A stretch of DNA of 64,000 bases from Bdellovibrionota bacterium (GTDB taxonomy: Bacteria; Bdellovibrionota_G; JALEGL01; JAGRMV01). Shown here piece by piece: positions 3,767 to 60,211 of the stretch (its first letter is position 1; every line of letters begins with the position of its first letter). The DNA is taken from assembly GCA_041391365.1 (NCBI GenBank), contig JAWKOC010000004.1, positions 82,804 to 146,803 of the forward strand. The letters run 5' to 3'. Under the pieces are notes generated by a model. It did not search any database. It was not told the DNA's origin and saw nothing but the letters and a program-made list of their open reading frames with translations. The translations under genes were made by a program, and so were the position numbers.

Positions 3767-4519
3767 ATGAATCCGTCCTCACGAAATGTTCGCTTATCTT
3801 TTGGATTGCCGTTGACGCCTGTGGTTCGGAATTTGATGTGGATCAATGCGATTGTGTTTGTTTGTATGCTATTGGTTCAAAATCAGACCTTCTTTTTGGA
3901 CATTAGCTATCCAGCAGCCATCGTTCACATGCTGGGAGTCAAACCTCATTCGGTGTTGCATGAGTATGCGTTTTGGCAACCTTTTACCTATCTGTTTCTG
4001 CATGTGGGATGGATGCATCTTCTCATGAACATGTTGGGACTTTGGGTGTTTGGATCTGACGTGGAACGGATCATGGGGCCGCGCCGATTTTTGCAGTATT
4101 ATTTTTTTACGGGAGCTGGAGCGGGGTTGGTTTCTGCTTTCATGGGCATCCCAACGGTGGGTGCATCGGGAGCCATCTTTGGTCTTCTTTTGGCCTTTGG
4201 AATGTTGTTTCCCAATCGAACGTTGTACATTTATTTTATTTTTCCCATCAAGGCCAAATATGCGGTGATGCTCTTTGGTTTGATTGAGTTGGTTTTTTTG
4301 ATGATGCGTTCGGATCAAAGCATGACCAACTATGCAGCACATTTGGCGGGGCTTGCATTTGGATTGTTGTGGTTTTTGTTTCGTTTGCGAAAGTTTGATT
4401 TCAAAGGTTTTTTTCGAGACATCCAACGCAATCGAAAAAAGAAAAAGTTTCGCGTGATCTCCAATCCACCGGAGGATCAGAGTGTGAAGGATCCTTACAA
4501 CAACCACACGATTCATTAA
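3767..4519 (+). CDS. Rhomboid-family intramembrane serine protease
   Basis: 250-aa polytopic membrane ORF with HLLMNMLGLWVFG and the catalytic-Ser motif GASGAIFGLLLAFG, plus a later AHLAGLAFG (His) motif. Confidence 0.85.
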   Translation: MNPSSRNVRLSFGLPLTPVVRNLMWINAIVFVCMLLVQNQTFFLDISYPAAIVHMLGVKPHSVLHEYAFWQPFTYLFLHVGWMHLLMNMLGLWVFGSDVERIMGPRRFLQYYFFTGAGAGLVSAFMGIPTVGASGAIFGLLLAFGMLFPNRTLYIYFIFPIKAKYAVMLFGLIELVFLMMRSDQSMTNYAAHLAGLAFGLLWFLFRLRKFDFKGFFRDIQRNRKKKKFRVISNPPEDQSVKDPYNNHTIH

Positions 4520-4526
4520 AAGGTAC

Positions 4527-4977
4527 GCTCAGTCGCCGCAAGGCTCCCCCGGCCGAGGCCGGAGACAAGGGTCGCACAGACGATCTTGATCCGTTGTGAA
4601 GTCCTCTGCAGGAAATGGCTCGCCGGCACTGCAAATCTTCACTGCAGAATCACCTGCTGCGCTTGAGTTTCCTTCCGAGGATTTCACAACGTATCCCATT
4701 TCATCAGATGCAATGATCAGGGGAAAAAAGAAATAAAGAAAAAAAAGGAGATGCATGCCATGGGCATGCATCATTGTTTCTTATTTATAGGATTTTGAGA
4801 AACTCGGTACGAAAGCTATTGGAGAATTGAGACATTTTCGAGGCGGAAGCGAGAAGGCCACCGGAGCGTACCTGCGGTGTACGTGAGGATGGCCGACGAG
4901 CGACAACAATGAAAATGGCCAATGATTCAATAGCTCTGATGTTGGCCTCGGCCGGGGGGGCCTTGCGGCGACTGAGC
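4527..4977 (+). repeat. Structured intergenic element, copy 1 (shared left module and termini, unique right module)
   Basis: The left terminus GCTCAGTCGCCGCAAGGCTCCCCCGGCCGAGGCC (4527-4560) is the reverse complement of the right terminus 4944-4977, with one T:G position. Bases 4527 to about 4790 are near-identical to 10325 to about 10590 and 13603 to about 13860. It fills the whole gap between the convergent rhomboid stop (4517-4519) and folA stop (4979-4981). Confidence 0.9.
4750..4772. terminator. Central hairpin of element copy 1; putative (mainly minus-direction) intrinsic terminator
   Basis: GATGCATGCC-ATG-GGCATGCATC is a perfect 10-bp stem. A long A-tract sits upstream, which reads as a U-tract for minus-strand transcripts coming from folA. 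A weaker T-rich tract (ATTGTTTCTTATTTAT) sits downstream. Confidence 0.5.
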
Positions 4978-6357: not shown

Positions 6358-9021
6358 ATGCAGTCACAAATGCAATTTGAAAACGTATCCTCCGATTCTC
6401 AGAGCTCAACCCCAAAGACTTCTCCCGCGTCCCAAGCTTCTCAGACGCCGCTGATGAAGCAATACTGGGAGATCAAATCTACGTGTCCAGACGCGATTTT
6501 GTTTTTTCGTTTGGGGGATTTTTATGAAATGTTCTTTGACGATGCTGTCAAAGCTGCGCCAATTCTGGGAATTGCGCTGACTTCCAGGGACAAAAATGCG
6601 CAGAATCCGGTTCCTCTTTGTGGCGTTCCTTTTCATAGCTCTCAGAGTTATGTAGCCAAACTTTTGGATGCAGGTTTGAAAGTGGCCATCTGTGAGCAGG
6701 TTGAAGATGCCTCCCAGAGCAAAGGAATTGTCAAACGAGAGATCATCAAAGTGATCACACCCGGACTTCGCACAGACGAAGAGGGCCTTGCGCCCATGGC
6801 ACAAAACTTTGTGTTGTCCCTGTGTGTTCGAACGTTGCCCAATGAGTTGCATGAATACACCTTGGGCTGTTTGGACTATGCCTCAGGCTCCATAGAAGTC
6901 ATGACCCGAAATCACATCGAAGATCTCATGGATGAAATCGATCGAATCAATCCTGTTGAGATCCTGGTCTTTGATCATACCGACGATGCACAGTGGATCG
7001 AGCGTTATGCCCCCGAGCGTATGTCCAATGTGCATCAGATTCCTCAGTGGGTGTTTTCGCAGGCCAAAGAAGAAATCAAAAAACACTTGAATGTGATGGA
7101 TTTGGGAATGTTGGGTTTGGATCATATTCCTCATGCCTTGGAATCCTGCGCGGCTTTGTATCATTATGTTGGAGTCGAAAACCAAGCCTCGTTGGCCCAT
7201 CTTCAACTTCCCAAACAGCATCGTGATCAGCGCTATATGGTACTCGACCATCATACCATTGAACACTTGGAACTTTTGGATCGTGGCGCCAAATCTGAAA
7301 ACAGTTTGTTTTCCATTTTGAATCAAACCAAAACCAGCATGGGAGCGCGTCGCCTCAAACAGTGGATGGTTCGTCCTTTGTGTGAGCGAGAGCCCATCGA
7401 GCAGCGCTACGATGCCATTGAGATTTTGATCCAAGAGAGAGAACTTCGCAAAGAGCTGAGAGTTCATCTGGCACACGTGTTTGATGTGGAACGAATTTTA
7501 TCTCGTTTGAGTTCGAAGAATGCAAGTCTGAGAGATTTGATCAGTCTATTGGAATCATTGCAACGTGCTTCCCAGATCAAACAACAGCTGGCCCATCTCC
7601 CCAAAACTTTTTTTGCAGGGATCGAAGACTTGTTGGATCCTCTGCCTGCATTGCAAGATTTGTTGCAGCAGTCGTTGAACCTTGAATCTGATTTTTCCAA
7701 ACACTCTTATCTGATCAAAGATGGCTATCATGCGGAGCTCGATCGATGGAGAAACATTGCCAAAGGAAATCGAAATTGGATTTTGGAACTGGAACAGAAA
7801 CAACGAAAAGAGACCGGCATCTCCTCCCTCAAAGTCGGGTACAATAAGGTTTTTGGATATTATCTGGAAGTGACAAACACTCATCGAGATAAAATACCCG
7901 CCCACTACATTCGAAAACAAACGCTGGCCAATGCAGAACGTTTTGTGACCCCTGAATTGAAAGAAAAAGAGTTGGAGATTGAAAACTCCAAACAAGAGAT
8001 GGAAAAGCTTGAAATGCAGTTGTTTCAGGAACTACGTCAAAACGTCTCAATGGAAAAAGACAAACTGCAGACCCTTGCAGATCATTTGGCTCAGCTGGAT
8101 GCAATGGTGTCTTTGGCGCAAGTATGTGCAGACTATGCCTATGTTCGCCCTGTCATACAAGATGGAGATGATTTGATTCTTGATCAAGGAAGACATCCTG
8201 TGGTGGAGCGTAGTCTTGCACTCACTGAGCCGTTTGTTCCCAACAGTGTGCACTTTACCTCCCATGGCAAGAGAATGATTTTGCTCACCGGTCCAAACAT
8301 GGCCGGAAAATCTACGGTGATGAGACAGGTGGGGTTGATCGTGATCATGGCACAGATGGGTTGTTTTGTGCCTGCAGAACAACTAAAATTTTCTTTGGTC
8401 GATCGTGTGTTTACACGCATTGGAGCCTCGGATGATTTGGCAAAAGGTCGGTCCACATTCATGATGGAAATGAGTGAAGCCGCATACATTTTGCATCACG
8501 CGACGCCAAAATCTCTGATTTTGCTGGATGAATTGGGAAGAGGCACAAGCACCTACGATGGATTGTCGATTGCTTGGGCGATCATGGAGCATCTGGATCA
8601 GAAGATTTGTGCAAAAACCATTTTTGCCACGCACTATCATGAGCTCACTTCTCTTGCACAACAGTCTGATACCATCGAAAACATGAGAATGACGATCCAA
8701 GAATGGGAAGGCAAAATAGTGTTTTTGAGAAAATTGGAGATGGGCAGCATTCAAAAAAGCTATGGAATTGAAGTGGCTCGATTGGCAGGAATGGAAACGA
8801 GCATCACCCAAAGAGCGCAGCAGATTTTGAAAGGCCTAGAGAAAACATCTTCTACCACGTCTCTTGGAGATCTTCCTCCACTCAGCGCGGAACCTGAAAT
8901 GTTGCAACCCACTCCCATGGAGATGTGGGTGGATCAGCTTGATCCAGACCAGATGAGCCCCAAGCAGGCCCTGGATCGACTCTACGAGTTGAAAAAAATA
9001 CGAAACTCTTCAAAAAATTGA
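6358..9021 (+). CDS. mutS: DNA mismatch repair protein MutS
   Basis: The ORF 6319..9021 contains TPLMKQYWEIK, GDFYEMFFDDA, the Walker A motif GPNMAGKST, DELGRGTSTYDG and FATHYHEL. The likely start is the ATG at 6358 (MQSQMQF). Confidence 0.95.
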   Translation: MQSQMQFENVSSDSQSSTPKTSPASQASQTPLMKQYWEIKSTCPDAILFFRLGDFYEMFFDDAVKAAPILGIALTSRDKNAQNPVPLCGVPFHSSQSYVAKLLDAGLKVAICEQVEDASQSKGIVKREIIKVITPGLRTDEEGLAPMAQNFVLSLCVRTLPNELHEYTLGCLDYASGSIEVMTRNHIEDLMDEIDRINPVEILVFDHTDDAQWIERYAPERMSNVHQIPQWVFSQAKEEIKKHLNVMDLGMLGLDHIPHALESCAALYHYVGVENQASLAHLQLPKQHRDQRYMVLDHHTIEHLELLDRGAKSENSLFSILNQTKTSMGARRLKQWMVRPLCEREPIEQRYDAIEILIQERELRKELRVHLAHVFDVERILSRLSSKNASLRDLISLLESLQRASQIKQQLAHLPKTFFAGIEDLLDPLPALQDLLQQSLNLESDFSKHSYLIKDGYHAELDRWRNIAKGNRNWILELEQKQRKETGISSLKVGYNKVFGYYLEVTNTHRDKIPAHYIRKQTLANAERFVTPELKEKELEIENSKQEMEKLEMQLFQELRQNVSMEKDKLQTLADHLAQLDAMVSLAQVCADYAYVRPVIQDGDDLILDQGRHPVVERSLALTEPFVPNSVHFTSHGKRMILLTGPNMAGKSTVMRQVGLIVIMAQMGCFVPAEQLKFSLVDRVFTRIGASDDLAKGRSTFMMEMSEAAYILHHATPKSLILLDELGRGTSTYDGLSIAWAIMEHLDQKICAKTIFATHYHELTSLAQQSDTIENMRMTIQEWEGKIVFLRKLEMGSIQKSYGIEVARLAGMETSITQRAQQILKGLEKTSSTTSLGDLPPLSAEPEMLQPTPMEMWVDQLDPDQMSPKQALDRLYELKKIRNSSKN

Positions 9022-10313: not shown

Positions 10314-10324
10314 AGATACTTTGC

Positions 10325-10797
10325 GCTCAATCGCCGCGGGGCTCCCCCGGGCGAGGCCGGAGACAAGGTTCGCACAGACGATCTTGATCCGTTGTGAAGT
10401 CCTCTGCAGGAAATGGCTCGCCGGCACTGCGGATCTTCACTGCAGAATCACCTGCTGCGCTTGAGTTTCCTTCCGAGGATTTCACAACGTACCCCATTTC
10501 ATCAGATGCAATGATCAGGGGAAAAAAGAAATAAAGAAAAAAAAGGAGATGCATGCCAAAGGCATGCATCATTGTTTCTTATTATTTTTTTTCTTCTTGT
10601 GCATGAAGCGAAGCATCTGAGAGGGGAAAGCATACGTTTCAAAGTTCTGGGAAAACTAAAGCACAGCCGGAAAGTCGATCGATCTTCTCTTGAGATCAGG
10701 CGAGCCATTTTCCCAGAACTTTGAAACGGGAGCTTACGCATGTCTGTGATGAGTGCCCCACCCGTCCTTGGCCGGGGGAGCCTTGCGGCGATTGAGC
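10325..10797 (+). repeat. Structured intergenic element, copy 2 (complete palindromic form)
   Basis: Termini 10325-10352 and 10770-10797 are complementary, including A:T at 10330/10792 where the other copies have G:C. It shares both left and right modules with copy 3. It lies between the convergent amidase stop (10311-10313) and the stop of ORF 10805..11248. Confidence 0.9.
10548..10570. terminator. Central hairpin of element copy 2; putative bidirectional intrinsic terminator
   Basis: GATGCATGCC-AAA-GGCATGCATC, preceded by GGGGAAAAAAGAAATAAAGAAAAAAAAGGA and followed by ATTGTTTCTTATTATTTTTTTTC. Confidence 0.55.
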
Positions 10798-10804
10798 GTA
10801 AAAT

Positions 10805-11248
10805 TTATTGACCGTTGGAAAGAGAAAAGACCTGTTCCATAGGGAGCAACTCCCCTTCGTTGCTGGAGCCGCCAGTTGTGGCCACAGAGATTTGCAATCT
10901 ATTGGACTCTGGGCAGGACTCCATGCCCATTTTCATCAACGATAGTTCGATGGAAGATGAACCGATGCGAACCACGCGCATGTCGAACTTTTCTACGGTT
11001 TCAAAATCGGTGTAAAAACTGATCTCCGCTCGTGGCAGCGAGTCCACGTCGTGGTCGAATCGAATGCGAAAAGCCATGCATGTATTGTCCGAAAGATCTG
11101 AAGAAGAGATGTTGGAAAATGACAGTAGCCTTGTATCGCTGAAGGTTACAGCCTTGGCCATGACCCAGGGAAGAGCTGCAGTGATCAGGATTCCAACAAT
11201 GGCCATCCATAGCCATTTTGAATTCTCCTTTTTTTTCGAGTACTGCAT
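10805..11248 (-). CDS. Hypothetical small exported/membrane-anchored protein
   Basis: 147-aa ORF with an N-terminal hydrophobic segment WLWMAIVGILITAALPWVMA. No recognisable domain. Confidence 0.6.
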   Translation of the reverse strand: MQYSKKKENSKWLWMAIVGILITAALPWVMAKAVTFSDTRLLSFSNISSSDLSDNTCMAFRIRFDHDVDSLPRAEISFYTDFETVEKFDMRVVRIGSSSIELSLMKMGMESCPESNRLQISVATTGGSSNEGELLPMEQVFSLSNGQ

Positions 11249-11314
11249 AATCTCTTTTTTTCAGGAAAGGTCGTGGGTGATAGATTTCACCCACGACCTT
11301 TCCTCAATTTTCTT

Positions 11315-12265
11315 TTAAAAACCGGTGATGGGTCCAAACGCCTCGCTGGTCACTTCGGTTTGTCCGGTGGTCATTTGAACATCCACATTGACCCCACTGC
11401 TGATGGAGAGATCAATTCCTGTTCCGCTAGGACCTGCATTGGTCAGTTGGTTTCCAGCTGAATCATAGGCTTGATTGACCACCAATCGATAGCTTCGACC
11501 CGAGGTGCAGTCTTCATACAAAGGTTTGACATACCAAACATCTACCTTGTCGAAAAAAACGGTTCCCACTTGCAGATACGATGCAGTGCTAGGATTGTTC
11601 CAGTTGCCAAAGGCTCCTTTGAAAAGCACATTGAATTGAGGCATAGATGCCAGACCTTCGTTGAACGTGACTCGGAAGTGTCCGAAGCAACCGGTGCCTT
11701 CTTTGATGCGCTCTATTTTTTTGATGTAGGGAGGATTGACAGGATCGTTGTTGTTGATGCCTCCACCGTTGGCTGCACCAACCCAGAAACGAATGCTTCC
11801 CGTGGTATAGATTCCACCAAAGAGTTGTCGACCAATTTGGTCATAAATGTTTTTGTTCAGTAGAACTTTGTACTCCCCGTTGCTCAAGACCACCGAGGAA
11901 CTCAATGACAACACGACCGTGTAATCACCATTGGTCAATACGGCTGGATCAAATTTGGAAGTTACATCATCTATGGTTCCATTGGTTGAGGTTCTTTCCA
12001 CTCGAATGTTGCTGCTCAAGCTGCTGGCGTCGACTTTTTCATTGAAGGTCAAATAAACTTTGGTGCCCTGGGCGGAGTTGTAGGCCGACTCATGCAAAGG
12101 GGAAGATTCCACAAGGTCAAAAATGTTTTGACCCAGGGATCCCTGCTGCCAAAATCCATTGGACGGAGATCCTGTGGTTCCGCAGGATGCCATGGCGATG
12201 GAAAGGAGACCAGCTCCGACCATGCGACTCATAGAAAAATACCATTTTTGCTCTGTTTTTTTCAT
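11315..12265 (-). CDS. Hypothetical lipoprotein with Ig-like (SbsA/Big_5-like) N-terminal domain; paralog of 12391..13494
   Basis: 316-aa ORF with the lipobox LSIAMASC. The segment SSPLHESAYNSAQGTKVYLTFNEKVDASSLSSNIRV resembles bacterial Ig-like domains. Blocks shared with the neighbour are FWVG..GGGI, G.FGC.G, CTSGRSYRLVVNQAYDSAGN, and the C-terminus SEAFGPITGF. Confidence 0.7.
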   Translation of the reverse strand: MKKTEQKWYFSMSRMVGAGLLSIAMASCGTTGSPSNGFWQQGSLGQNIFDLVESSPLHESAYNSAQGTKVYLTFNEKVDASSLSSNIRVERTSTNGTIDDVTSKFDPAVLTNGDYTVVLSLSSSVVLSNGEYKVLLNKNIYDQIGRQLFGGIYTTGSIRFWVGAANGGGINNNDPVNPPYIKKIERIKEGTGCFGHFRVTFNEGLASMPQFNVLFKGAFGNWNNPSTASYLQVGTVFFDKVDVWYVKPLYEDCTSGRSYRLVVNQAYDSAGNQLTNAGPSGTGIDLSISSGVNVDVQMTTGQTEVTSEAFGPITGF

Positions 12266-13494: not shown

Positions 13495-13602
13495 GTCTGA
13501 CCTTATATTCCAGGATTTTGTCGAGTGCAAGTGAATAAATGTGTGACTTTACTAACTTATTGATTTTATTTCATTATGTTATTTCGCAAAATGTTAAAAG
13601 GT

Positions 13603-14071
13603 GCTCAGTCGCCGCAAGGCTCCCCCGGCCGAAGCCGGAGATAAGGGTCTCACAGACGATCTTGATCCGTTGTGAAGTCCTCGGCAGGAAATGGCTCGCC
13701 GGAACTGCAAATCTTCACTGCAGAATCACCTGCTGCGCTTGAGTTTCCTTCCGAGGATTTCACAACGTGTCCCATTTCATCAGATGCAATGATCAGGAGA
13801 AAAAAGAAAAAAAGAGGAGATGCATGCCATGGGCATGCATCATTGTTTCTTATTATTACTTTTTTTCTTCTTGTGCATGAAGCGAAGAATCTGAGAGGGG
13901 AAAGCTCCCGTTTCGAAGTTCTGGGAAAACTAAAGCGCAGCCCGGAAGTCGATTGATCTTCTCTTGAGATCAGGCGAGCCATTTTCCCAGAACTTCGAAA
14001 CGGGAGCTTACGCATGTCTGTGATGAGTGCCCCACCCGTCCTTGGCCGGGGGAGCCTTGCGGCGACTGAGC
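13603..14071 (+). repeat. Structured intergenic element, copy 3 (complete palindromic form)
   Basis: Termini 13603-13630 and 14044-14071 are complementary. The right-arm hairpin 13904-13929/13982-14007 is a 26-bp perfect stem. The right terminus ends 1 nt from the stop codon (14073-14075) of ORF 14073..15101. Confidence 0.9.
13819..13841. terminator. Central hairpin of element copy 3; putative bidirectional intrinsic terminator
   Basis: GATGCATGCC-ATG-GGCATGCATC with an A-tract upstream and ATTGTTTCTTATTATTACTTTTTTTC downstream. It is placed to terminate the minus-strand gene 14073..15101. Confidence 0.5.
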
Positions 14072-37485: not shown

Positions 37486-40269
37486 ATGAAAAATGCACTA
37501 GTTAGGCTCCAGGGGAAAACATTGAAAAAGATACAGCATGGATTTTTGATTTTATTGGCACTCACGTATGCCTTACCTCTTTGGGCTAGAGCCAACGTGG
37601 AATTCTATCCAAAAGAGAGTTTCACTCTATTTGAGCAGGAGTACTTTCACGGATTGGTCGAAACCTTAGATGATATTGGTTTGGCTTTTAAAACAGTGGA
37701 ATTCAGCAAACCTTTGAATTTTTCTCAAAAATACCCGCATCAGTTGTTGGTCGTGCAAAAGGAAAAGCCGTTGTTTTCCTTCTTGGGGAGAGAATCACTT
37801 GTAATAGAGCTATCACCTGAAAGTCAATTTGAAATCTTTCGCAATCGAAATGAGCCTTTTTCGCATGTTTTGGAATTTATTTTGCTCAAGGAATTGTTGC
37901 TGGCTGATCACTGGAAACAACTGATTCAAGACCGTTTTGGAATTAAGGTTTCCGAAAAACAACCTGGTGAACATTTGTCTGAATTTCAATTTACTGAATT
38001 TACAACAAATCAGTTGTATCGAATTTACAAAGCCCTTCGAAATATCGATCTTTATAACATGGTGAAAAACTCTGAGATCCATAGCATTATGAGAGATGTT
38101 CAAAATCAAGTTCGCACCAAAACTCGATATGCAGCAGCTATCTCGAGTGGACATCACATTGTTATTGGTTCAGCTCTCGGTAGAGACGGTGGATTGGATG
38201 GTTTTGAGAGTACAATCTATCATGAGATGGGACATCAGATCTGGCATCACTTTTTGTCAGGTGATCAACGAATAGAATATCTGAAACTGAGTTGGAAATT
38301 GATTGAAAATCAAGGTGGTGGCCAAAGTTGGGAGGCATACAACACGCAGTTTATTTCTGAATACTCTACTACAAAAGAGTGCTCTCATATGCTTGCTCTT
38401 GTGGATTCCTCTGACACAGATTCTGAGAAAATCAGGAAAGAGGTATGCTTGCAACCCGCAGAGGATTTTGCAGAGCACTTCAGCGCGTTTTTTATTGCTC
38501 CTTGGGATCTATACAATAGAGCGAAAGATAAGTTTGATTTTCTTTCACGCATGTATGGAAAAATGTTGGTGTATCGACAAGGTCTAGCGACATTAACAAC
38601 AGATATCACCACGGGAATTGAATTCTGGTCAACGCCGAAGTTGGGTAGTTTTACATGGAGCCAGTCAATCATTGATCAAACGGTGACATATGAGACCTTG
38701 AGTATTTCCAAAATGCAATTGCGGAGCAAGACGATTGCTCAGATGAAAGAGATTTATGAGGAGTATCATCGATTGAATCAGGAGACTGTCGTTGCCATAA
38801 GTGACAGAGCGAGGAGTGACTTCGAAAGCTACATTGAAACAGAAATTGATTATCTTTTCGATACGGAAAACTGTAAACCAGAGAACAGAGAAAAACTGAT
38901 AGACGAACTATACGATGAAATTAGCACGCAATTCAATCCTATGAATCTTGATCGAATGGAATACGCATATGCATTTTCGCTGCAAGAACAAAGAAAAAGC
39001 CAAGGAAATTTTGTTTCTACTCTTGAGTTGTCCTGGGAAAACAAAGAGATTCTCCCTTCCTCTCAGGTTATGGAAGGAATAGACCACAGATTCAATCCAA
39101 AAAATAGCGACTTTCATGAGAGTGGAGAGTCTGAGCATGGCAATGCCCTGTCTAGCTCTGGAAAGCTTAGCCTTACGAGGATTGTGAAACCAGACAATGA
39201 GAATGGAAAATTGTACAGGGGTGAAAACATGATTTCATCTTTGACGGTTCAAGATGTCGTTAACAATAAAACTGTATATCCTGAAGACCTACTTCGGAGT
39301 ATGCTCCCACAAAGTCATGATCTTTCTTTTGAGCTTTTGGATCCAAGATATATCGTATACCCTAAGGAGAAAATCACTGCGTATGAATATTACCAGGTTT
39401 CGGAGACTACACTTCCAAGTCGTGCTGTAAAAGAGTTTACTGTGGAAGAAGTATTTTTCCAAGATCCTGAATATCAAGCCAATGTTCATAGAGTACGTAT
39501 TGACCGCAGACATCACGAAAAAATTCATTCCCTCCGCCTGTATTTTGATTTTCCAGACTGCAAATATAAAGACGATAGTGTGGTAAGAATTGATAAATTT
39601 CTTTCAAAGCCTGGGGATGAATACATGGAATTCTATGTGTACTTTCCCTTGGAATTGTATGCATGTACAAACCTTGTATTGGAGAAGGTAGGAGCGGAAT
39701 TCTATAACCCCGATCCAGAACGATATGAGATGGAGGAGGACCTGGTGAAGTTTGATCTGGAAGGAGGATTTTCGCTGATCAATGTGGGAGAAACAAAAGT
39801 TTATGGAAATGTGTCGGATCTTTCGGACCGTGTGAAGATAAAAAATGTATTTGAAGCTGATGGACAAATCGAAGTTCTCGGTCAAGGAGATTTTTTGCCT
39901 CAACTCAAATCCAAATTTTCAATTCCCATTCAAGGCTGGGAAGGCAAAGAAACGATTGAATTGGAGGTGGAATTGGAAGGCCCCGGTTCTCGCAATATCT
40001 CGATTTCTCAAACTTTCGACAGGAAAAAAATTGAAGAAGCTCCAACCATCATGGTGGGAGGGCAGAAAATAAAATTATTTGATCTAGAAGTCGGAGAACT
40101 AGTCTTGAACAATGGAAAGTATTTTATATCATCTGTAAAAGTAACGTCTCAAATTAGTGCAGATTCAACCTTAAATGCCGAAAGAAGATCTAGGCTAGAT
40201 CATGACGAATTCACAAAAACCAGATTTGCCCCCAATCCAGAAATGATTCATATCCAAGGTAAGGAATGA
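37486..40269 (+). CDS. Large secreted hypothetical protein with HExxH zinc-metallopeptidase motif
   Basis: 927-aa ORF with the signal peptide FLILLALTYALPLWARA. HEMGH lies at 38221-38235 (TIYHEMGHQIWHHF) and a downstream AEDFAEHF lies at 38458-38481, a gluzincin-like arrangement. The gene is markedly AT-rich and is inserted between truB and rpsO. Confidence 0.7.
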   Translation: MKNALVRLQGKTLKKIQHGFLILLALTYALPLWARANVEFYPKESFTLFEQEYFHGLVETLDDIGLAFKTVEFSKPLNFSQKYPHQLLVVQKEKPLFSFLGRESLVIELSPESQFEIFRNRNEPFSHVLEFILLKELLLADHWKQLIQDRFGIKVSEKQPGEHLSEFQFTEFTTNQLYRIYKALRNIDLYNMVKNSEIHSIMRDVQNQVRTKTRYAAAISSGHHIVIGSALGRDGGLDGFESTIYHEMGHQIWHHFLSGDQRIEYLKLSWKLIENQGGGQSWEAYNTQFISEYSTTKECSHMLALVDSSDTDSEKIRKEVCLQPAEDFAEHFSAFFIAPWDLYNRAKDKFDFLSRMYGKMLVYRQGLATLTTDITTGIEFWSTPKLGSFTWSQSIIDQTVTYETLSISKMQLRSKTIAQMKEIYEEYHRLNQETVVAISDRARSDFESYIETEIDYLFDTENCKPENREKLIDELYDEISTQFNPMNLDRMEYAYAFSLQEQRKSQGNFVSTLELSWENKEILPSSQVMEGIDHRFNPKNSDFHESGESEHGNALSSSGKLSLTRIVKPDNENGKLYRGENMISSLTVQDVVNNKTVYPEDLLRSMLPQSHDLSFELLDPRYIVYPKEKITAYEYYQVSETTLPSRAVKEFTVEEVFFQDPEYQANVHRVRIDRRHHEKIHSLRLYFDFPDCKYKDDSVVRIDKFLSKPGDEYMEFYVYFPLELYACTNLVLEKVGAEFYNPDPERYEMEEDLVKFDLEGGFSLINVGETKVYGNVSDLSDRVKIKNVFEADGQIEVLGQGDFLPQLKSKFSIPIQGWEGKETIELEVELEGPGSRNISISQTFDRKKIEEAPTIMVGGQKIKLFDLEVGELVLNNGKYFISSVKVTSQISADSTLNAERRSRLDHDEFTKTRFAPNPEMIHIQGKE

Positions 40270-45022: not shown

Positions 45023-48000
45023 TTACGCAAACATTTTTCTTCGAACGGGGATGTACAGTCCAAAGATAAGCAAAAATCTCCAAAGACCTGACCCTGAGCT
45101 GGATTGGCACCCTCCAAACAAACCTTTTTCTGCAGAACCTCCCAAACGAACATCTACTTGATTGGGATTGAGCCCCTTTTCTGATTCTTCTTGATCGTTG
45201 ATTCCATCCCCATCAGAGTCTGTGGTTGATGGTTTGGGAGAAACGAGGGTTTCATCGAGTACAGGGCCATTGTTCGAAGAATTGGAATCTCCCAAGGTGA
45301 GCACTCTAGCATTGGGTTTGAACGTTCCTGGTGTAGGTGTGGATACCCGCAAACTCAACGTAGGAGCATAGGCCAAAGAACCTATGCTTGCGATCAATTG
45401 ACAAGTCAGTTGACCTGCCACATGCAAACAGGTCCAATCGCTTCCTCGAATACGAAACAAAATCCAGTCCAGAAGGAAAAGAAACCGTAACTGTAGTAAG
45501 AGCTGTGGTGGATGCTCCTCCATGGTTGAACACATCGATCGAATAGGTCAGTGTCCCATCTTGAACTCCATTTCCGCTATGAAACATTTGGACGGAAAGA
45601 TCTGGAAATACAATGATGCTGACAAAATTGCTTGCGGAAGCACCAGAAACGTTGTCGGTACCACCGCTTCCTTCTTGGTCGAAGGTAACATCTCCATCAG
45701 AGATGGAGTTGGAGACGGTGGAACCAGTTGCACTGGATTGCACAGAGCAGGTTAGCGTGAGGAGGCACTGGCGGCATTGGCGAGACTGCCAACCGACCAT
45801 GTACCACTGAGTAAGAGCCTGTGGCGGTGGAGCTGGAGATGGAAGAAGTGCCGGAAGGACAGGCATCATTGATGGCGAGGTTGGTGGCGGTTTGCTGACC
45901 AGAGTTGCTTACGCCGATGGTGTAGATGAGGTTGGTTCCAACATTGACCGCACCGGTGGGGCTTACGCTTTTGGTGACGGTCAGAGCGGGAAGAGAGTTG
46001 ACGGAGTTGCTTGCGGAAGCACCGGAAACGTTGTCGGTACCACCACTTCCTTCTTGGTCGAAGGTGACATCTCCATCAGAGATGGAGTTGGAGACGGTGG
46101 AACCAGCTGCACTGGATTGCACAGAGCAGGTTAGCGTGAGGGAAGCACTGGCAGCATTAGGCGAGACTGCCAATCGACCATGTACCACTGGAGTAAGAAC
46201 CTGTGGCGGTGGAGCTGGAGACGGAGGAGGTACCGGGAAGGACAGGCGTCATCGATGGCGAGGTTGGTGGCGGTTTGCTGGACCAGAGTTGCTTACGCCG
46301 ATGGTGTAGATGAGGTTGGTTCCGACATTGACCGCACCGGTGGGGCTTACGCTTTTGGTGATGGTCAGAGCGGGAAGAGAGTTGACGGAGTTGCTTGCGG
46401 AAGCACCGGAAACGTTGTCGGTACCACCACTTCCTTCTTGGTCGAAGGTGACATCTCCATCAGAGATGGAGTTGGAGACGGTGGAACCAGCCGCGCTGGA
46501 TTGCACAGAGCAGGTTAGCGTGAGGGAAGCACTGGCAGCATTGGCGAGACTGCCAACCGACCATGTACCACTGGAGTAAGAACCTGTGGCGGTGGAGCTG
46601 GAGACGGAAGAGGTACCGGAAGGACAGGCGTCATCGATGGCGAGGTTGGTGGCGGTTTGCTGACCAGAGTTGCTTACGCCGATGGTGTAGATGAGGTTGG
46701 TTCCGACATTGACCGCACCGGTGGGGGCTTACGCTTTTGGTGATGGTCAGAGCGGAAGAGAGTTGACGGAGTTTGAAACACTTGCACCGGAAACGTTGTC
46801 GGTACCACCACTTCCTTCTTGGTCGAAGGTGACATCTCCATCAGAGATGGAGTTGGAGACGGTGGAACCAGCTGCGCTGGATTGCACAGAGCAGGTTAGC
46901 GTGAGGGAGACACTGGCGGCATTGGCGAGACTTCCGAGGGACCATGTGCCACTGGAGTAAGAACCTGTGGCGGTGGAGCTGGAGACGGAGGAGGTACCGG
47001 AAGGACAGGCGTCATCGATGGCGAGGTTGGTGGCGGTTTGCTGACCAGAGTTGCTTACGCCGATGGTGTAGATGAGGTTGGTTCCGACATTGACCGCACC
47101 GAGTGGGGCTTACGCTTTTGGTGACGGTCAGAGCGGGAAGAGAGTTGACGGAGTTGCTTGCGGAAGCACTCGGAAACGTTGTCGGTACCACCACTTCCTT
47201 CTTGGTCAGCAGTGACATCTCCATCAGAGATGGAGTTGGAGACGGTGGAACCAGCTGCACTGGATTGCACAGAGCAGGTTAGCGTGAGGGAAGCACTGGC
47301 AGCATTGGCAAGACTTCCGAGGGACCATGTGCCACTGGAGTAAGAACCTGTGGCGGTGGAGCTGGAGACGGAAGAGGTACCGGAAGGACAGGCATCATTG
47401 ATGGCGAGGTTGGTGGCGGTTTGCTGACCAGAGTTGCTTACGCCGATGGTGTAGATGAGGTTGGTTCCAACATTGACCGCACCGGTGGGGCTTACGCTTT
47501 TGGTGACGGTCAGAGCGGGAAGAGAGTTGACGGAGTTTGAAACACTTGCACCGGAAACGTTGTCGGTACCACCACTTCCTTCTTGGTCGAAGGTGACATC
47601 TCCATCAGAGATGGAGTTGGAGACGGTGGAACCAGCTGCACTGGATTGCACAGAGCAGGTTAGCGTGAGGGAAGCACTGGCAGCATTGGCGAGACTGCCA
47701 ACCGACCATGTACCACTGGAGTAAGAACCTGTGGCGGTGGAGCTGGAGACGGAGGAGGTACCGGAAGGACAGGCGTCATCGATGGCGAGGTTGGTGGCGG
47801 TTTGCTGACCAGAGTTGCTTACGCCGATGGTGTAGATGAGGTTGGTTCCGACATTGACCGCACCGGTGGGGCTTACGCTTTTGGTGATGGTCAGAGCGGG
47901 GGGAGTATTTCCAACACTTACTGAGGCACTTGCTGGAACATCATCTGCGGTGGATGCTGTGGTATCAATTTGTTCGCTTCCAACAAAACCGATGGCCTGA

Positions 48001-52457: not shown

Positions 52458-52555
52458 TATACCCGATTGGGTATATTTCACGTGTTTAGTATATTTTTAT
52501 ACCATATCGGGTATAAAAATATAAAATATGGAATATTTATACCTGATCAGGTATA
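52458..52555. promoter_or_regulatory. Three 18-bp palindromic operator-like sites TATACC-N6-GGTATA, spaced exactly 40 bp apart, upstream of and overlapping the hipB start
   Basis: The sites are 52458-52475 TATACCCGATTGGGTATA, 52498-52515 TATACCATATCGGGTATA and 52538-52555 TATACCTGATCAGGTATA (perfect). The right half-sites run into TATA(T/A)(T/A) -10-like hexamers, e.g. TATAAT at 52552-52557. Confidence 0.75.
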
Positions 52556-52779
52556 ATAAGCCTGTGCTGGATCAATTTGTCAAAAAAAGGCGAAAGGAAC
52601 TCGGGTTGAGTCAAATCGAGCTGGCTGATCGGGCAGGGTTGGGTCTTCGATTTATTCGAGACGTTGAGCAAAAAAAGCCAACCCTTCGCATGGATAAGGT
52701 CAATCAACTGTTGCAACTTTTTGGGCACGAACTGGGTCCAATTCCAATGGATCGAAATAAAAAGGGTTCTGGATCATGA
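52528..52779 (+). CDS. hipB: XRE-family helix-turn-helix protein, HipB-like
   Basis: 83-aa ORF with KKRRKELGLSQIELADRAGLGLRFIRDVEQKKPTLRMDKVNQLL. Its stop overlaps the next start (ATGA). An alternative start is the GTG at 52564, because the ATG at 52528 lies between operators 2 and 3. Confidence 0.8.
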   Translation: MEYLYLIRYNKPVLDQFVKKRRKELGLSQIELADRAGLGLRFIRDVEQKKPTLRMDKVNQLLQLFGHELGPIPMDRNKKGSGS

Positions 52780-53102
52780 GGAGTGGAAAAGTTTTTGTAT
52801 CCAATCAATTTGCGGGGCGTATTTATGAGTCTGACGAAGGTTTTATTTTTGCCTATGATCAAAATTATTTACGCATAGAAAATGCGACACCTGTCAGTTT
52901 GACAATGCCCCTACAATCTGACGAATACAAAAGCAAAACAATGTTTCCATTTTTTGACGGATTGATTCCAGAGGGATGGCTCCTAAGCATCACGCAGAAA
53001 CATTGGAAAATTCAATCGAATGATCGAATGGCTTTGCTTCTTACCGTCTGTCGAGACTGTATTGGGAATGTTCATATAGAAAATGAGGAAGAAAATATAT
53101 GA
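52776..53102 (+). CDS. hipS: HipS-like protein (stand-alone HipA N-terminal subdomain, 'couple_hipA')
   Basis: 108-aa ORF: VFVSNQFAGRIYESDEGFIFAYDQNY...PVSLTMPLQ...MFPFFDGLIPEGW...CRDCIGNVHI. It is collinear with the first ~100 aa of E. coli HipA. It has 4-nt overlaps with both neighbours. Confidence 0.8.
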   Translation: MRSGKVFVSNQFAGRIYESDEGFIFAYDQNYLRIENATPVSLTMPLQSDEYKSKTMFPFFDGLIPEGWLLSITQKHWKIQSNDRMALLLTVCRDCIGNVHIENEEENI

Positions 53103-54064
53103 GTAAACATTCCTCTCATAAATGCAGAGTTTGTTGTGAATCAACTCGATTAGCGATCGATAGCAACTACCATGAGAAATGTGTAGAAAAATTATTTGGA
53201 ACGGTTGCAGTACCTGAAATTGATTTTACCATGGAAAATATGGAAGAACTTGCGAAGCAGGAAATAAATCAAAGAGTCGTTATTACGGGTGTACAACCCA
53301 AACTTTCCATGGATTTTGAAAGTCTTGAAGGGAAAAACAAAAATAATCGATTGACGGTGGTTGGGCTTTGGGGAAGATTTATTTTAAAACCACCCCACAA
53401 AGATTATCCGCAAATGCCAGCATTGGAGCACATTACAATGCGCATGGCCCAGATGATGGGGATACAAACTGCGGAAAATGGCCTGATTCAATTTGAATCA
53501 GGAGAATTGGCCTATGTTGCTCGAAGATTCGATCGACCAGACAAAAATAGTAAATTAGCTCAAGAGGATTTTTGTCAACTTAGTCAGCAGTTAACAGAGC
53601 ACAAGTATCGAGGCTCAATGGAGAAAGCGGGAAACATTATTTCCGAATATAGTTCAAATCCCGGATTTGATTTGATCAGATTTTGTGAGCTAGCACTTTT
53701 TTCGTTTCTGACAGGCAATGCCGATATGCATTTGAAAAACTTTTCACTTCTTACAAACACGCAAGGGTTGACGGTGCTTTCTCCGGGGTACGATCTCATT
53801 TCTACAGCTTTGATTATTCCACAAGACAAAGAAGAAATGGCACTCACCATAAATGGCAAAAAAAGTAAATTGGTCAAAAATGATTTTGACATGCTCTTTC
53901 AGTATTTCGAGTTACCAGAAAAAGCGATTCACAATCTATATGCACGTATGGAAAAAGAAATTCCAAAGTGGATCCAACTCATTAAGAAAAGTTTTTTATC
54001 GAAACAGATGCAAGAACAATATATTCATATAATACACACCAGAGCAAAAAGAATCTTTTTTTAG
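53099..54064 (+). CDS. hipT: HipT-like Ser/Thr kinase toxin (HipA kinase core lacking N-subdomain 1)
   Basis: 321-aa ORF with the Gly-rich loop VITGVQPKLS, FILKPP, the catalytic GNADMHLKNFSLL, and LSPGYDLIST. An N-terminal Cys/His cluster reads CRVCCES...YHEKC. Confidence 0.8.
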   Translation: MSKHSSHKCRVCCESTRLAIDSNYHEKCVEKLFGTVAVPEIDFTMENMEELAKQEINQRVVITGVQPKLSMDFESLEGKNKNNRLTVVGLWGRFILKPPHKDYPQMPALEHITMRMAQMMGIQTAENGLIQFESGELAYVARRFDRPDKNSKLAQEDFCQLSQQLTEHKYRGSMEKAGNIISEYSSNPGFDLIRFCELALFSFLTGNADMHLKNFSLLTNTQGLTVLSPGYDLISTALIIPQDKEEMALTINGKKSKLVKNDFDMLFQYFELPEKAIHNLYARMEKEIPKWIQLIKKSFLSKQMQEQYIHIIHTRAKRIFF

Positions 54065-54228: not shown

Positions 54229-54320
54229 TGGCGGAGAGAGGGGGATTCGAACCCCCGATACGGTTTAACCCGTATACCCGCGTTCCAGGCGAGCGCCTTC
54301 AACCACTCGGCCACCTCTCC
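54229..54320 (-). tRNA. tRNA-Ser (anticodon GGA), class II with long variable arm, CCA encoded
   Basis: The reverse complement reads GGAGAGGTGGCCGAGTGGTTGAAGGCGCTCGCCTGGAACGCGGGTATACGGGTTAAACCGTATCGGGGGTTCGAATCCCCCTCTCTCCGCCA. Anticodon stem CTCGC/GCGGG, loop CTGGAAC, T-arm GGGGG-TTCGAAT-CCCCC. Confidence 0.95.
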
Positions 54321-60118: not shown

Positions 60119-60211
60119 AAATCGGCCTTATCATCTTCAAACTCAAATGCAAAGCCCATTTATGGGACAGTGTGAGAAAAAGTCTCTTCCTTTGGAGTAG
60201 AGTCTAAGTGC

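Follow-up and report, generated by a model that had tools for sequence, protein, structure and literature searches.

The non-coding repeat SPRITE, interspersed through the genome of S. pneumoniae, folds into a stem with a U-rich tract behind it and is strongly enriched between convergent genes and near the 3' ends of coding sequences (PMC3049150). No target-site duplication (TSD) has been established for SPRITE, nor is any IS known that shares its termini; the repeat has been proposed as a co-opted terminator. It is shorter than 200 bp, with a G+C content of 28%, one 18-bp duplex and only AAAA/TTTT as terminal inverted repeats (TIRs) (PMC3049150). The prokaryotic MITEs (for example Correia/NEMIS, RUP, ERIC, QMITE, Chunjie and Nezha) form a broader class of small, non-coding elements with TIRs, found as near-identical intergenic copies, whose transcripts or single-stranded DNA adopt very stable stem-loops and whose mobilisation in trans is presumed (PMC10969869).

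A repeat comparable to both was found in the window, the whole 64-kb stretch of DNA that was analysed, which comes from an uncultured Bdellovibrionota genome. Three copies in the same orientation (plus strand) were located at positions 4527–4977 (copy 1, 451 nt), 10325–10797 (copy 2, 473 nt, the locus flagged in the first-pass annotation) and 13603–14071 (copy 3, 469 nt), all inside 10 kb, and the remaining 50 kb of the window held no further copies. The repeat family is real and previously uncatalogued, yet of a broadly familiar kind. The initial statement that it resembles nothing known was overstated, SPRITE (PMC3049150) and the class reviewed in PMC10969869 being comparable. With SPRITE the element shares a terminator-like stem with a U-rich tract, a location at gene 3' ends and in convergent spacers and the lack of a TSD. 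It differs in its length of 450–470 bp, its G+C content of 51%, its 28–34 nt GC-rich TIRs, its two arm hairpins of about 100–125 nt, its symmetric core of A-tract, hairpin and T-tract, which is terminator-like in both directions, and its occurrence in another phylum; kinship in sequence with SPRITE is not expected. On these features it is best regarded as an analogue of SPRITE and not as a member. Compared to MITEs, the direct repeats that flank young copies are absent around the element, which is also slightly GC-richer than its genome (0.51 versus 0.46) whereas MITEs are typically AT-rich; it has no known parent IS and lies at the large end of the MITE size range of tens to a few hundred bp.

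The TIRs of copy 2 are located at 10325–10358 (plus strand) and 10764–10797 (minus strand), with counterparts at 4527–4560 and 4944–4977 in copy 1 and at 13603–13630 and 14044–14071 in copy 3. Their G+C content is 76–82%, against 46% for the genome. In the window, the terminus pattern GCTCARTCGCCGCNNGGCNCCCCCGG has six matches in all, one at either end of each of the three loci, with 0 expected by chance. Between the termini the order is an arm hairpin of about 100–125 nt, an A-tract, a GC-rich hairpin of 10 bp, a T-tract and a second arm hairpin. A left module of about 260 nt is common to all copies, copy 2 showing 96% identity to copy 1, and copy 3 reaching 85% in an ungapped and 92.6% in a gapped comparison. 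The right part of about 230 nt is common to copies 2 and 3 only (93% identity). Copy 1 has the same left module and central hairpin as the others but a right arm of its own, unrelated in sequence except for the final 34 nt, which indicates at least two subfamilies. Aligned to its own reverse complement, the element matched at 62–64% identity (E 1e-28 to 1e-31), and the element body is an old, diverged palindrome.

Much of this architecture had been recognised in the first-pass annotation, and the three same-orientation loci with 28–34 nt TIRs were confirmed in all coordinates and features. A near-identical left module, put at about 245 nt, and a right module in copies 2 and 3 that is a diverged mirror image of the left were borne out by the alignments, and every nested complementary block listed for copy 2 was present. 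These blocks had been taken to allow a choice between one rod and two branches; the pairing is there, but it is simply the appearance of a diverged palindrome and no special alternative.

All copies fold into a terminal stem around three hairpins, with a stability far past chance (z = −12.3 and −12.7 as RNA, −15.3 as DNA). The long hairpin of the left arm (10390–10489, plus strand; counterparts 4592–4691 and 13668–13767) has an outer stem of 24 nt with 88% complementarity. Copies 2 and 3 share a long right-arm hairpin (10619–10744, plus strand; 13893–14018 in copy 3) with a perfect 21-bp outer stem (10635–10655/10708–10728). Copy 1 keeps the hairpin shape here with an alternative hairpin of about 120 nt (4815–4934, plus strand), unrelated in sequence to the right arm of the other two copies; by blastn this arm had no match in plasmids and nothing meaningful in phages. 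A parallel is found in BOX of S. pneumoniae (boxA-boxB-boxC), in which conserved end modules surround an exchangeable internal module with a fold of its own, so that the overall structure survives a swap of modules. BOX is shorter, makes TSDs, lacks a central bidirectional terminator and is unrelated in sequence.

Such folds could belong to structured ncRNA genes or 3'-UTR RNA elements, the TIRs serving as the closing helix of an RNA of about 470 nt. The extreme stability as RNA and the preserved arm shape of copy 1 are consistent with this reading, as are two double-sided compensatory changes between copies 2 and 3 (10330/10792 and 10641/10722; simulated P(≥2) ~0.035). Between the same two copies, however, six or seven single changes break pairs, and the left half, compared over all three copies, showed 0 compensatory changes and five broken pairs among 75 predicted (covariation term +1.23); from so few sequences the support by covariation is weak. 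Matched changes at the termini are equally expected from one protein binding both ends or from homogenisation of the arms at the DNA level, and the fold is more significant still as single-stranded DNA. Nothing in Rfam 15 reached the gathering threshold, and even at E≤10 the check proposed in the first-pass annotation returned only spurious A/T-tract matches to Plasmodium RNase P and a plant miRNA. Promoter-like sites were absent within all three copies. The closing helix would moreover be unable to form in the predicted RNAs, because the central terminator would end transcripts arriving from either side before the termini could pair. A large structured ncRNA, one of the roles put forward initially, is thus very unlikely.

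The core of the element (10519–10598 in copy 2, unstranded) consists of the A-tract, a perfect hairpin of 10 bp (10548–10570; counterparts 4750–4772 and 13819–13841) and the T-tract. The hairpin GATGCATGCC-NNN-GGCATGCATC is perfect in all three copies, with ATG, AAA and ATG as loops, so that the stem, with GC pairs at six of its ten positions, is invariant while the loop changes. By pattern matching, the hairpin and its T-rich tail were called terminator-like on both strands in each copy, as its appearance had suggested from the start. The U-tract of the plus strand (AUUGUUUCUU...) is weaker than that of the minus strand (UCCUUUUUUUU). As judged from these sequence features, each insertion carries a predicted bidirectional intrinsic terminator.

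The open reading frames inside the element were also considered. Absence of any ORF conserved between the copies had been claimed, which is literally wrong: a minus-strand ORF of 81 aa is common to copies 1 and 2, though disrupted in copy 3, and all three copies have three small plus-strand ORFs in common. None of them looks coding. The 81-aa ORF runs through a homopolymer tract and each difference between the copies is an amino acid change, and no ORF inside the element had a coding signature, for which reason a small peptide or type I toxin was rejected. Searches with the 81-aa and a 121-aa pseudo-ORF, a way of finding element copies translated by gene callers elsewhere, yielded no homologues among 5.8 billion proteins or 1.84 billion representatives.

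The copies are inserted just 3' of housekeeping genes. Copy 1 lies between the convergent rhomboid (plus strand) and DHFR (minus strand) genes, with the rhomboid stop codon 7 nt away and that of DHFR 1 nt away, and copy 2 between the convergent genes for the AmiC amidase (plus strand) and an ORF of 147 aa (minus strand). Copy 3 is situated between two minus-strand genes, 1 nt beyond the stop codon of a 342-aa gene and 73 nt upstream of a 379-aa Big_5 gene. Spacers between convergent genes thus hold two of the three sites, and a stop codon is found 1–11 nt away at five of the six element ends, three sites being too few for statistics.

In the syntenic loci of the nearest relatives the element is missing at all three sites. 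For copy 1, the DHFR and rhomboid genes of relative L005 are 12 nt apart (catTAAaaagtctttgttTTA), while the window reads catTAAaaggtac[451 nt]cTTA; the window flanks, when joined, align with the relative straight through the junction. At the sites of copies 2 and 3, relatives L003 and L008 have element-free gaps, of 186 bp and 71 bp with small hairpins of their own for copy 2 and of 127 bp for copy 3. The relatives with empty sites are distant (64–71% protein identity) and do not date the insertions, and neither precise excision nor an insertion polymorphism within a population was observed. Diverged family members were sought in the relatives' loci (L003, L005–L008) and only A/T-tract noise was found. 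The three loci are insertions into short spacers. These precise empty sites had been missed in the first-pass annotation, as had a target motif shared at two of the three sites.

A resident, non-mobile terminator region that local duplication or gene conversion had spread to the ends of adjacent genes would leave same-orientation copies within 10 kb and none in the other 50 kb, and would need no mobilising enzyme, in line with none having been found. Against this, the similarity among the copies (92–96%) halts exactly at the inverted termini, with unrelated genes on the flanks, and the genes separating the copies are single-copy and syntenic with those of the relatives. Conversion requires prior homology at each site, whereas the copy 1 site of the relative is a 12-nt spacer, and the two or more subfamilies implied by the different right arm of copy 1 also speak against it. 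Spread without mobility is highly improbable.

No TSD was detected for any copy, at lengths of 3–12 nt and boundary offsets of up to 4 nt in either direction, confirming at every offset tried what had been reported before. Short duplications of the TA, TTA or TTAA type and shifted boundaries were considered and gave no solution consistent over the three copies. A motif was found next to two of the insertions. The sequence TTAAAAGGT is present at 4516–4524 (plus strand), where it contains the rhomboid stop codon, 2 nt to the left of copy 1, and again, exactly, at 13594–13602 (plus strand), where it adjoins copy 3 on the left without a gap. These are its only two exact sites in 128 kb of two-strand sequence, and the relative natively has TTAAAAAGT at the same place. 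The flanks of copies 1 and 3, once joined, gave a score of 15, reached by 0.02% of random 30-mers, while the flanks of copy 2 lack the motif (p=0.34). At two of the three sites, insertion adjoins the same native motif of about 20 nt (TTAAAAGGT ^ MTTAYTYTTTGG), and TTAAAAGGT is a candidate target-site determinant.

Duplication-free insertion beside a specific short sequence is a trait of the PATEs derived from IS200/IS605, of REP/REPIN-RAYT and of IS110/IS1111, families that rely strongly on DNA hairpins and are frequently located at intergenic or terminator-like sites. Unlike the element, they have no long TIRs, and with IS110/IS1111 and IS200/IS605 the duplication-free, motif-adjacent insertion is the sole trait shared. 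Membership of REP/REPIN, which are GC-rich palindromes of 20–40 nt headed by a conserved GTAG, was rejected: the termini are without GTAG and with internal dyads of only 3–5 bp, and the window encodes no RAYT (PF01797). An IS110-type bridge RNA or IS605-type guide logic, which calls for internal segments complementary to the target and to the ends of the element, was likewise discarded, the longest matches between interior and target or donor measuring 4–7 nt (null fractions 0.16–1.0). A class C group II intron, a type that inserts after terminators and has domains V/VI, was dismissed since no Rfam intron matched and the element begins with GCUCAG and finishes with CUGAGC, not with 5' GUGYG, while integron attC sites and Xer/dif-modules were set aside by size, sequence signatures and the absence of cognate genes.

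Genes for a transposase, recombinase, RT or Cas protein were absent from the entire 64-kb window, extending the earlier remark that none is nearby, and neither Y1 (PF01797) nor DEDD nor other transposase domains were encountered in it. Scans with the exact terminus of GTDB representative genomes, JGI metagenomes and IMG/VR gave two matches, in a Roseococcus MAG and a soil contig, both inside GC-rich coding DNA and attributed to chance. Scans of IMG/VR with internal motifs gave no matches, and blastn of the element and its terminus against plasmids and phages produced nothing meaningful. A match of 25 out of 26 positions on a Nostoc plasmid was put down to coincidence, as it falls in a single-copy intergenic region that is conserved in four Nostoc plasmids and lacks an inverted partner.

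The three loci could also be ordinary MITEs of the DDE type, internally deleted or end-to-end dimerised derivatives of an IS located elsewhere in the genome and bounded by the same terminal repeats of about 30 bp, whose target duplications were very short, lost or obscured. Long TIRs, a small non-coding hairpin body and near-identical copies make up the standard description of a MITE (PMC10969869), a full-length palindrome with 62–64% self-complementarity would be expected from a dimer of one IS end, and three clustered copies match local hopping. Yet no flanking direct repeat of at least 3 nt exists although the copies are young (92–96% identity), and the copy 1 junction, compared with the empty site of the relative, leaves room for 1–2 extra nt at most. 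A motif of about 20 nt at two sites is unusual for most DDE IS families, and no IS with these termini was found in GTDB representatives, plasmids or phages. We consider this origin unlikely. Of the MITE role suggested initially, the small size, lack of coding capacity, TIRs and multicopy insertions stand, while the TSD, a textbook feature of MITEs, is missing, and a parent IS was not found in the window or in the collections scanned. That its absence counts against a textbook DDE-type MITE had gone unremarked in the first-pass annotation.

Taken as a whole, the three loci are probably copies of a mobile terminator repeat of MITE-like or SPRITE-like character, which is non-autonomous and moved in trans. 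A mobile terminator or insulator cassette had been among the roles first proposed, and it is supported by the insertion status evident from the empty syntenic sites and by the predicted two-way terminator. An enzyme encoded beyond the window would bind the terminal repeats and move the element in trans; as insertion is duplication-free and apparently sequence-selective, a site-selective recombinase or transposase is a likelier candidate than a classical DDE transposase with staggered cuts. After insertion, the central hairpin with its A and U tracts would halt transcription from either side, and the arm hairpin remaining on each terminated mRNA could act as a stable 3' structure, both being predictions from sequence. 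With termination in both directions, insertions between convergent genes would be harmless or of slight benefit, and the persistence of copies only at gene 3' ends would be accounted for. The ancestral 12-nt spacer at the copy 1 site left no space for any terminator. Copy number, target logo and structure statistics all rest on little, since there are three copies only, all within 10 kb.

A more specific scenario, homing, is quite unlikely. Here a non-DDE, site-selective system would place the palindrome, without duplication, in the narrow space between stop codons or just beyond them, by way of the motif of about 20 nt (TTAAAAGGT ^ MTTAYTYTTTGG) and a single-stranded DNA intermediate, and would thereby give convergent genes a bidirectional terminator at precisely the places where they lack one. 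The matched changes in both termini and the arm hairpins would on this view stem from folded single-stranded DNA, the halves of which template each other. If true, this would be a mode of targeting and maintenance not described for TIR-bounded bacterial repeats.

With three copies and no enzyme, the repeat is a modest, lineage-restricted finding. If the interpretation is correct, it represents a clean natural case of a selfish repeat with a ready-made two-way transcription stop that lands precisely at gene ends, and it is relevant to the acquisition of terminators by bacteria and to the insulation of convergent genes. Insertion next to a motif and without duplication is a hint of a mobilising enzyme other than a textbook transposase. 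The core of about 80 nt is a compact candidate for a bidirectional terminator part from a little-studied phylum of predatory bacteria.

Some variation was seen at the ends of the element. Both TIRs of copy 2 have an A at position 6, where those of copies 1 and 3 have a G. In copy 2 the inverted repeat continues outward for 5 nt on each side (TTTGC/GTAAA), and the true limits of this copy may be 10320–10802.

The three loci picked out in the first-pass annotation (copy 1, 4527-4977; copy 2, 10325-10797; copy 3, 13603-14071) could be aligned from end to end. The degenerate terminus pattern GCTCARTCGCCGCNNGGCNCCCCCGG was matched six times in the 64-kb window, at both ends of each locus and in inverted orientation, where shuffled sequences are expected to give 0 matches, confirming a three-copy element. 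The left module of approximately 260 nt, originally described as near-identical, is common to all copies, with 96% identity between copies 2 and 1 and 85% (ungapped) or 92.6% (gapped) for copy 3. Only copies 2 and 3 also have the right ~230 nt in common (93% identity). Copies 2 and 3 are separated by 29 point substitutions; the right part of copy 1 is unrelated sequence except for its last 34 nt. Each copy has a perfect central hairpin, GATGCATGCC-NNN-GGCATGCATC, with an A-tract before and a T-tract after it, and the invariant stem carries the loops ATG, AAA and ATG in copies 1, 2 and 3 respectively, in line with the first description.

Copies 1 and 2 have an identical architecture in their RNA minimum-free-energy folds (z = -12.7 and -12.3), a terminal stem of ~34 bp enclosing three hairpins, a long one on the left, a long one on the right and the central one between them. 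Folding of copy 3 as single-stranded DNA gave a matching architecture (z = -15.3). The right arm of copy 1 (4815-4934) differs in sequence, yet again forms a hairpin of ~120 nt; the element is thus modular, one arm being exchangeable for another hairpin-forming arm, and these modular arms recall the BOX elements. At 62-64% identity, the whole element aligns to its reverse complement (E 1e-28 to 1e-31), which characterizes it as an old, diverged palindrome. Every nested complementary block first listed for copy 2 was found, and the internal loops said to be complementary to each other are what remains of this palindrome at mirror positions.

The window is ordinary chromosome, including genes for CoaX, PanB, Dcd, a rhomboid protein, DHFR, ThyA, MutS, AmiC, Big_5 proteins, Lnt, YbeY, PhoH, ProRS, enolase, NusA, IF-2, TruB, PNPase and an Opp transporter. 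As stated at first reading for the neighbourhood, no transposase, reverse transcriptase or Cas protein, nor an integrase, was found by Pfam across the 64 kb. The flanking AmiC and DHFR have 100% identical counterparts in a Bdellovibrionota bacterium MAG (MEZ4705413.1), and the next relatives reach only 64-71%, indicating a sparsely sampled lineage.

The syntenic contigs of the nearest relatives, GCA_020434365.1 (Logan counterpart SRR7638773) and GCA_020054605.1, were compared with the window. At the site of copy 1, the rhomboid and DHFR genes of the relative are convergent with stop codons 12 nt apart (catTAAaaagtctttgttTTAtga), and the window reads catTAAaaggtac, the 451-nt element and cTTAttttttgg; with the flanks joined without the element, the alignment runs straight through the junction. 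The site of copy 2 corresponds to gaps of 186 bp and 71 bp in the relatives, each with its own small hairpin and without the element, and that of copy 3 to a gap of 127 bp. No diverged family members were present in these syntenic loci. Judged by this comparison, the three copies are insertions. Of the six element ends, five have a flanking stop codon at a distance of 1-11 nt; copies 1 and 2 are located between convergent genes, copy 3 between a stop codon and the 73-nt upstream region of the next gene.

Some further features border these sites. A palindromic block, TTTCGCAAAA / TTTGCGCAAAA, is located upstream of orthologous Big_5 genes at 13584-13593 in the window and at ~6545-6556 of the syntenic locus L003, and is kept in this 64%-identity relative; it is a candidate regulator binding site, and copy 3 is inserted 9 nt beyond it. 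Between copy 2 and a Big_5 gene, an ORF of 147 aa (10805-11248, minus strand) has a signal-peptide-like N-terminus and no Pfam match; it is absent from L003, the closest relative, and its position in a second syntenic locus, L008, is taken by a 156-aa gene with marginal similarity only (E 0.022). A hairpin with a perfect 18-bp stem (AGGAAAGGTCGTGGGTGA…TCACCCACGACCTTTCCT, 11263-11304) stands 10 nt beyond the stop codon of the Big_5 gene at 11315-12265 (minus strand); it has no relation to the repeat family and is a strong candidate for a native terminator.

Flanking direct repeats of 3-12 nt, with boundary offsets within ±4 nt, were found at none of the copies, bearing out the reported lack of target-site duplication; for copy 1, comparison with the relative's empty site allows one or two additional nucleotides at most. 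The exact sequence TTAAAAGGT occurs only twice in the window (both strands), once 2 nt from the left end of copy 1 and once directly at that of copy 3 (0 nt). The element-free site of the relative has TTAAAAAGT at the position corresponding to copy 1, so the motif is native target sequence and not part of the element. Between the joined flanks of copy 1 (TTAAAAGGTAC^CTTATTTTTTGGAAT) and copy 3 (TTAAAAGGT^ATTACTCTTTGGGAT), 22 of 26 positions match with one 2-nt gap, a score reached by 0.02% of random 30-mers from the window. The flanks of copy 2 lack the motif (p = 0.34); the true ends of this copy are uncertain because its inverted repeat extends 5 nt outward (TTTGC/GTAAA).

This precise, duplication-free and apparently motif-guided placement at gene ends is the most interesting residue of the analysis. 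Staggered-cut DDE transposases do not give duplication-free, motif-adjacent insertion. Such insertion, here presumably the work of an enzyme encoded outside the window, recalls the IS200/IS605, IS110/IS1111 and recombinase-type systems, but these lack the long terminal inverted repeats (TIRs) of the element. No guide-like complementarity of the arm interiors to the target or to the element ends was found.

On both strands of all three copies, the central stem (10 bp, six G-C pairs) with its T-rich tails was predicted to be an intrinsic terminator. Bidirectional terminators have this standard layout of an upstream A-tract and a downstream T-tract. The minus-strand terminator is canonical, the stem being followed by UCCUUUUUUUU, and the plus-strand tail (AUUGUUUCUU…) is weaker. 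Since the ancestral 12-nt spacer at the copy 1 site is too short for a terminator, insertion plausibly supplied the rhomboid and DHFR genes with a predicted one. At copy 3, the predicted terminator stands between the stop codon and the native promoter region of the downstream gene. Transcripts terminated at any of the copies would end in a stable 3' structure formed by the one arm hairpin that they retain. Terminator function once inserted is a prediction; together with the empty sites, it upholds the role of a mobile terminator-bearing repeat among those initially suggested.

The claim that no ORF is conserved was not strictly correct, as copies 1 and 2 have an 81-aa minus-strand ORF in common and all copies share three small ORFs on the plus strand; none of these has a coding signature. 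The 81-aa ORF runs through the poly-T tract (…LLFFLYFFFPL…), is disrupted in copy 3 by a 7-nt deletion, and has only amino-acid-changing substitutions between copies; inter-copy differences in the small ORFs are likewise exclusively non-synonymous. A protein-database search using the 81-aa and 121-aa pseudo-ORFs found no relative. A protein-coding element was rejected.

A large structured ncRNA, another proposed role, was not supported either. Rfam, run as the earlier annotation had suggested, gave only a tRNA (54232-54320) in the whole window at gathering thresholds and only spurious A/T-tract matches at E<=10, and no sigma-70-like promoter was found inside any copy. Among 75 predicted pairs in the left half of the three copies, there are 0 compensatory changes and five broken pairs (positive covariation term). 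Between copies 2 and 3, two pairs are compensatory with changes on both sides, one in the terminal stem (10330/10792) and one in the right hairpin (10641/10722; simulated P(>=2) about 0.035), and six or seven further changes break pairs. These two pairs are suggestive of selection or of homogenisation of the palindrome, and do not tell RNA from DNA structure. Transcription entering from either side would stop at the predicted central terminator before it had covered both termini; the terminal stem would thus be easier to explain as two DNA ends bound by a protein than as a helix in RNA.

Scanning GTDB species representatives, JGI metagenomes and IMG/VR for the exact terminus gave only two matches, both in GC-rich coding DNA and put down to chance; internal-motif scans of IMG/VR and blastn against plasmids and phages returned nothing. 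A 25/26 terminus match in Nostoc sp. PCC 7524 plasmid NC_019677.1 (57943-57968; 3001-3026 of the extracted piece L004) lies in an intergenic region of ~160 nt kept in four Nostoc plasmids, beside a DEAD/DEAH helicase gene. Being single-copy and without an inverted partner, it was rejected as a family member and is probably coincidental, though statistically unusual.

In function, the element comes closest to SPRITE of S. pneumoniae, an interspersed terminator-like repeat with enrichment between convergent genes and near 3' ends, for which no target-site duplication could be established and an IS sharing its ends is not known; SPRITE is <200 bp and AT-rich, with ends consisting only of AAAA/TTTT (PMC3049150). 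Like MITEs in general, the element is small, non-coding, TIR-bounded, multi-copy, hairpin-forming and presence-polymorphic (PMC10969869), so the MITE role first offered holds in most respects and fails on target duplication. It belongs to no Rfam family, nor to REP/REPIN, group II introns or integron attC sites. The element is therefore filed among the small non-autonomous TIR repeats with terminator-like folds, an already known kind; it is neither a strict MITE nor categorically new, and its unprecedented nature was overstated given these comparable repeats (PMC3049150, PMC10969869).

Elsewhere in the window, a toxin-antitoxin-like module of three overlapping plus-strand ORFs (52459-54064, upstream palindromes included) encodes an HTH_3 protein of 83 aa (52528-52779), a stand-alone HipA N-terminal (Couple_hipA) protein of 108 aa (52776-53102) and a HipA_C kinase of 321 aa (53099-54064). 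This trio (52528-54064) has the HipB/HipS/HipT split architecture. Three TATACC-N6-8-GGTATA palindromes ahead of it (~52459-52560) are predicted as likely operators, and the module adjoins the tRNA gene (54232-54320, minus strand) in a low-GC stretch (0.39). For a 927-aa ORF between truB and pnp (37486-40269, plus strand), Pfam gave no match at E<=0.001. Within coding sequence for a DUF11-repeat surface protein, a region (45518-47905, minus strand) with a local GC content of 0.57, versus 0.46 for the window, holds six tandem repeats of 381-383 bp that are 61-100% identical. Three paralogous genes for oligopeptide-binding SBP_bac_5 proteins of ~625-642 aa stand in tandem (58241-63992, minus strand) upstream of the OppBC permease and two OppD/F ATPase genes, and account for the direct-repeat families D9-D13.
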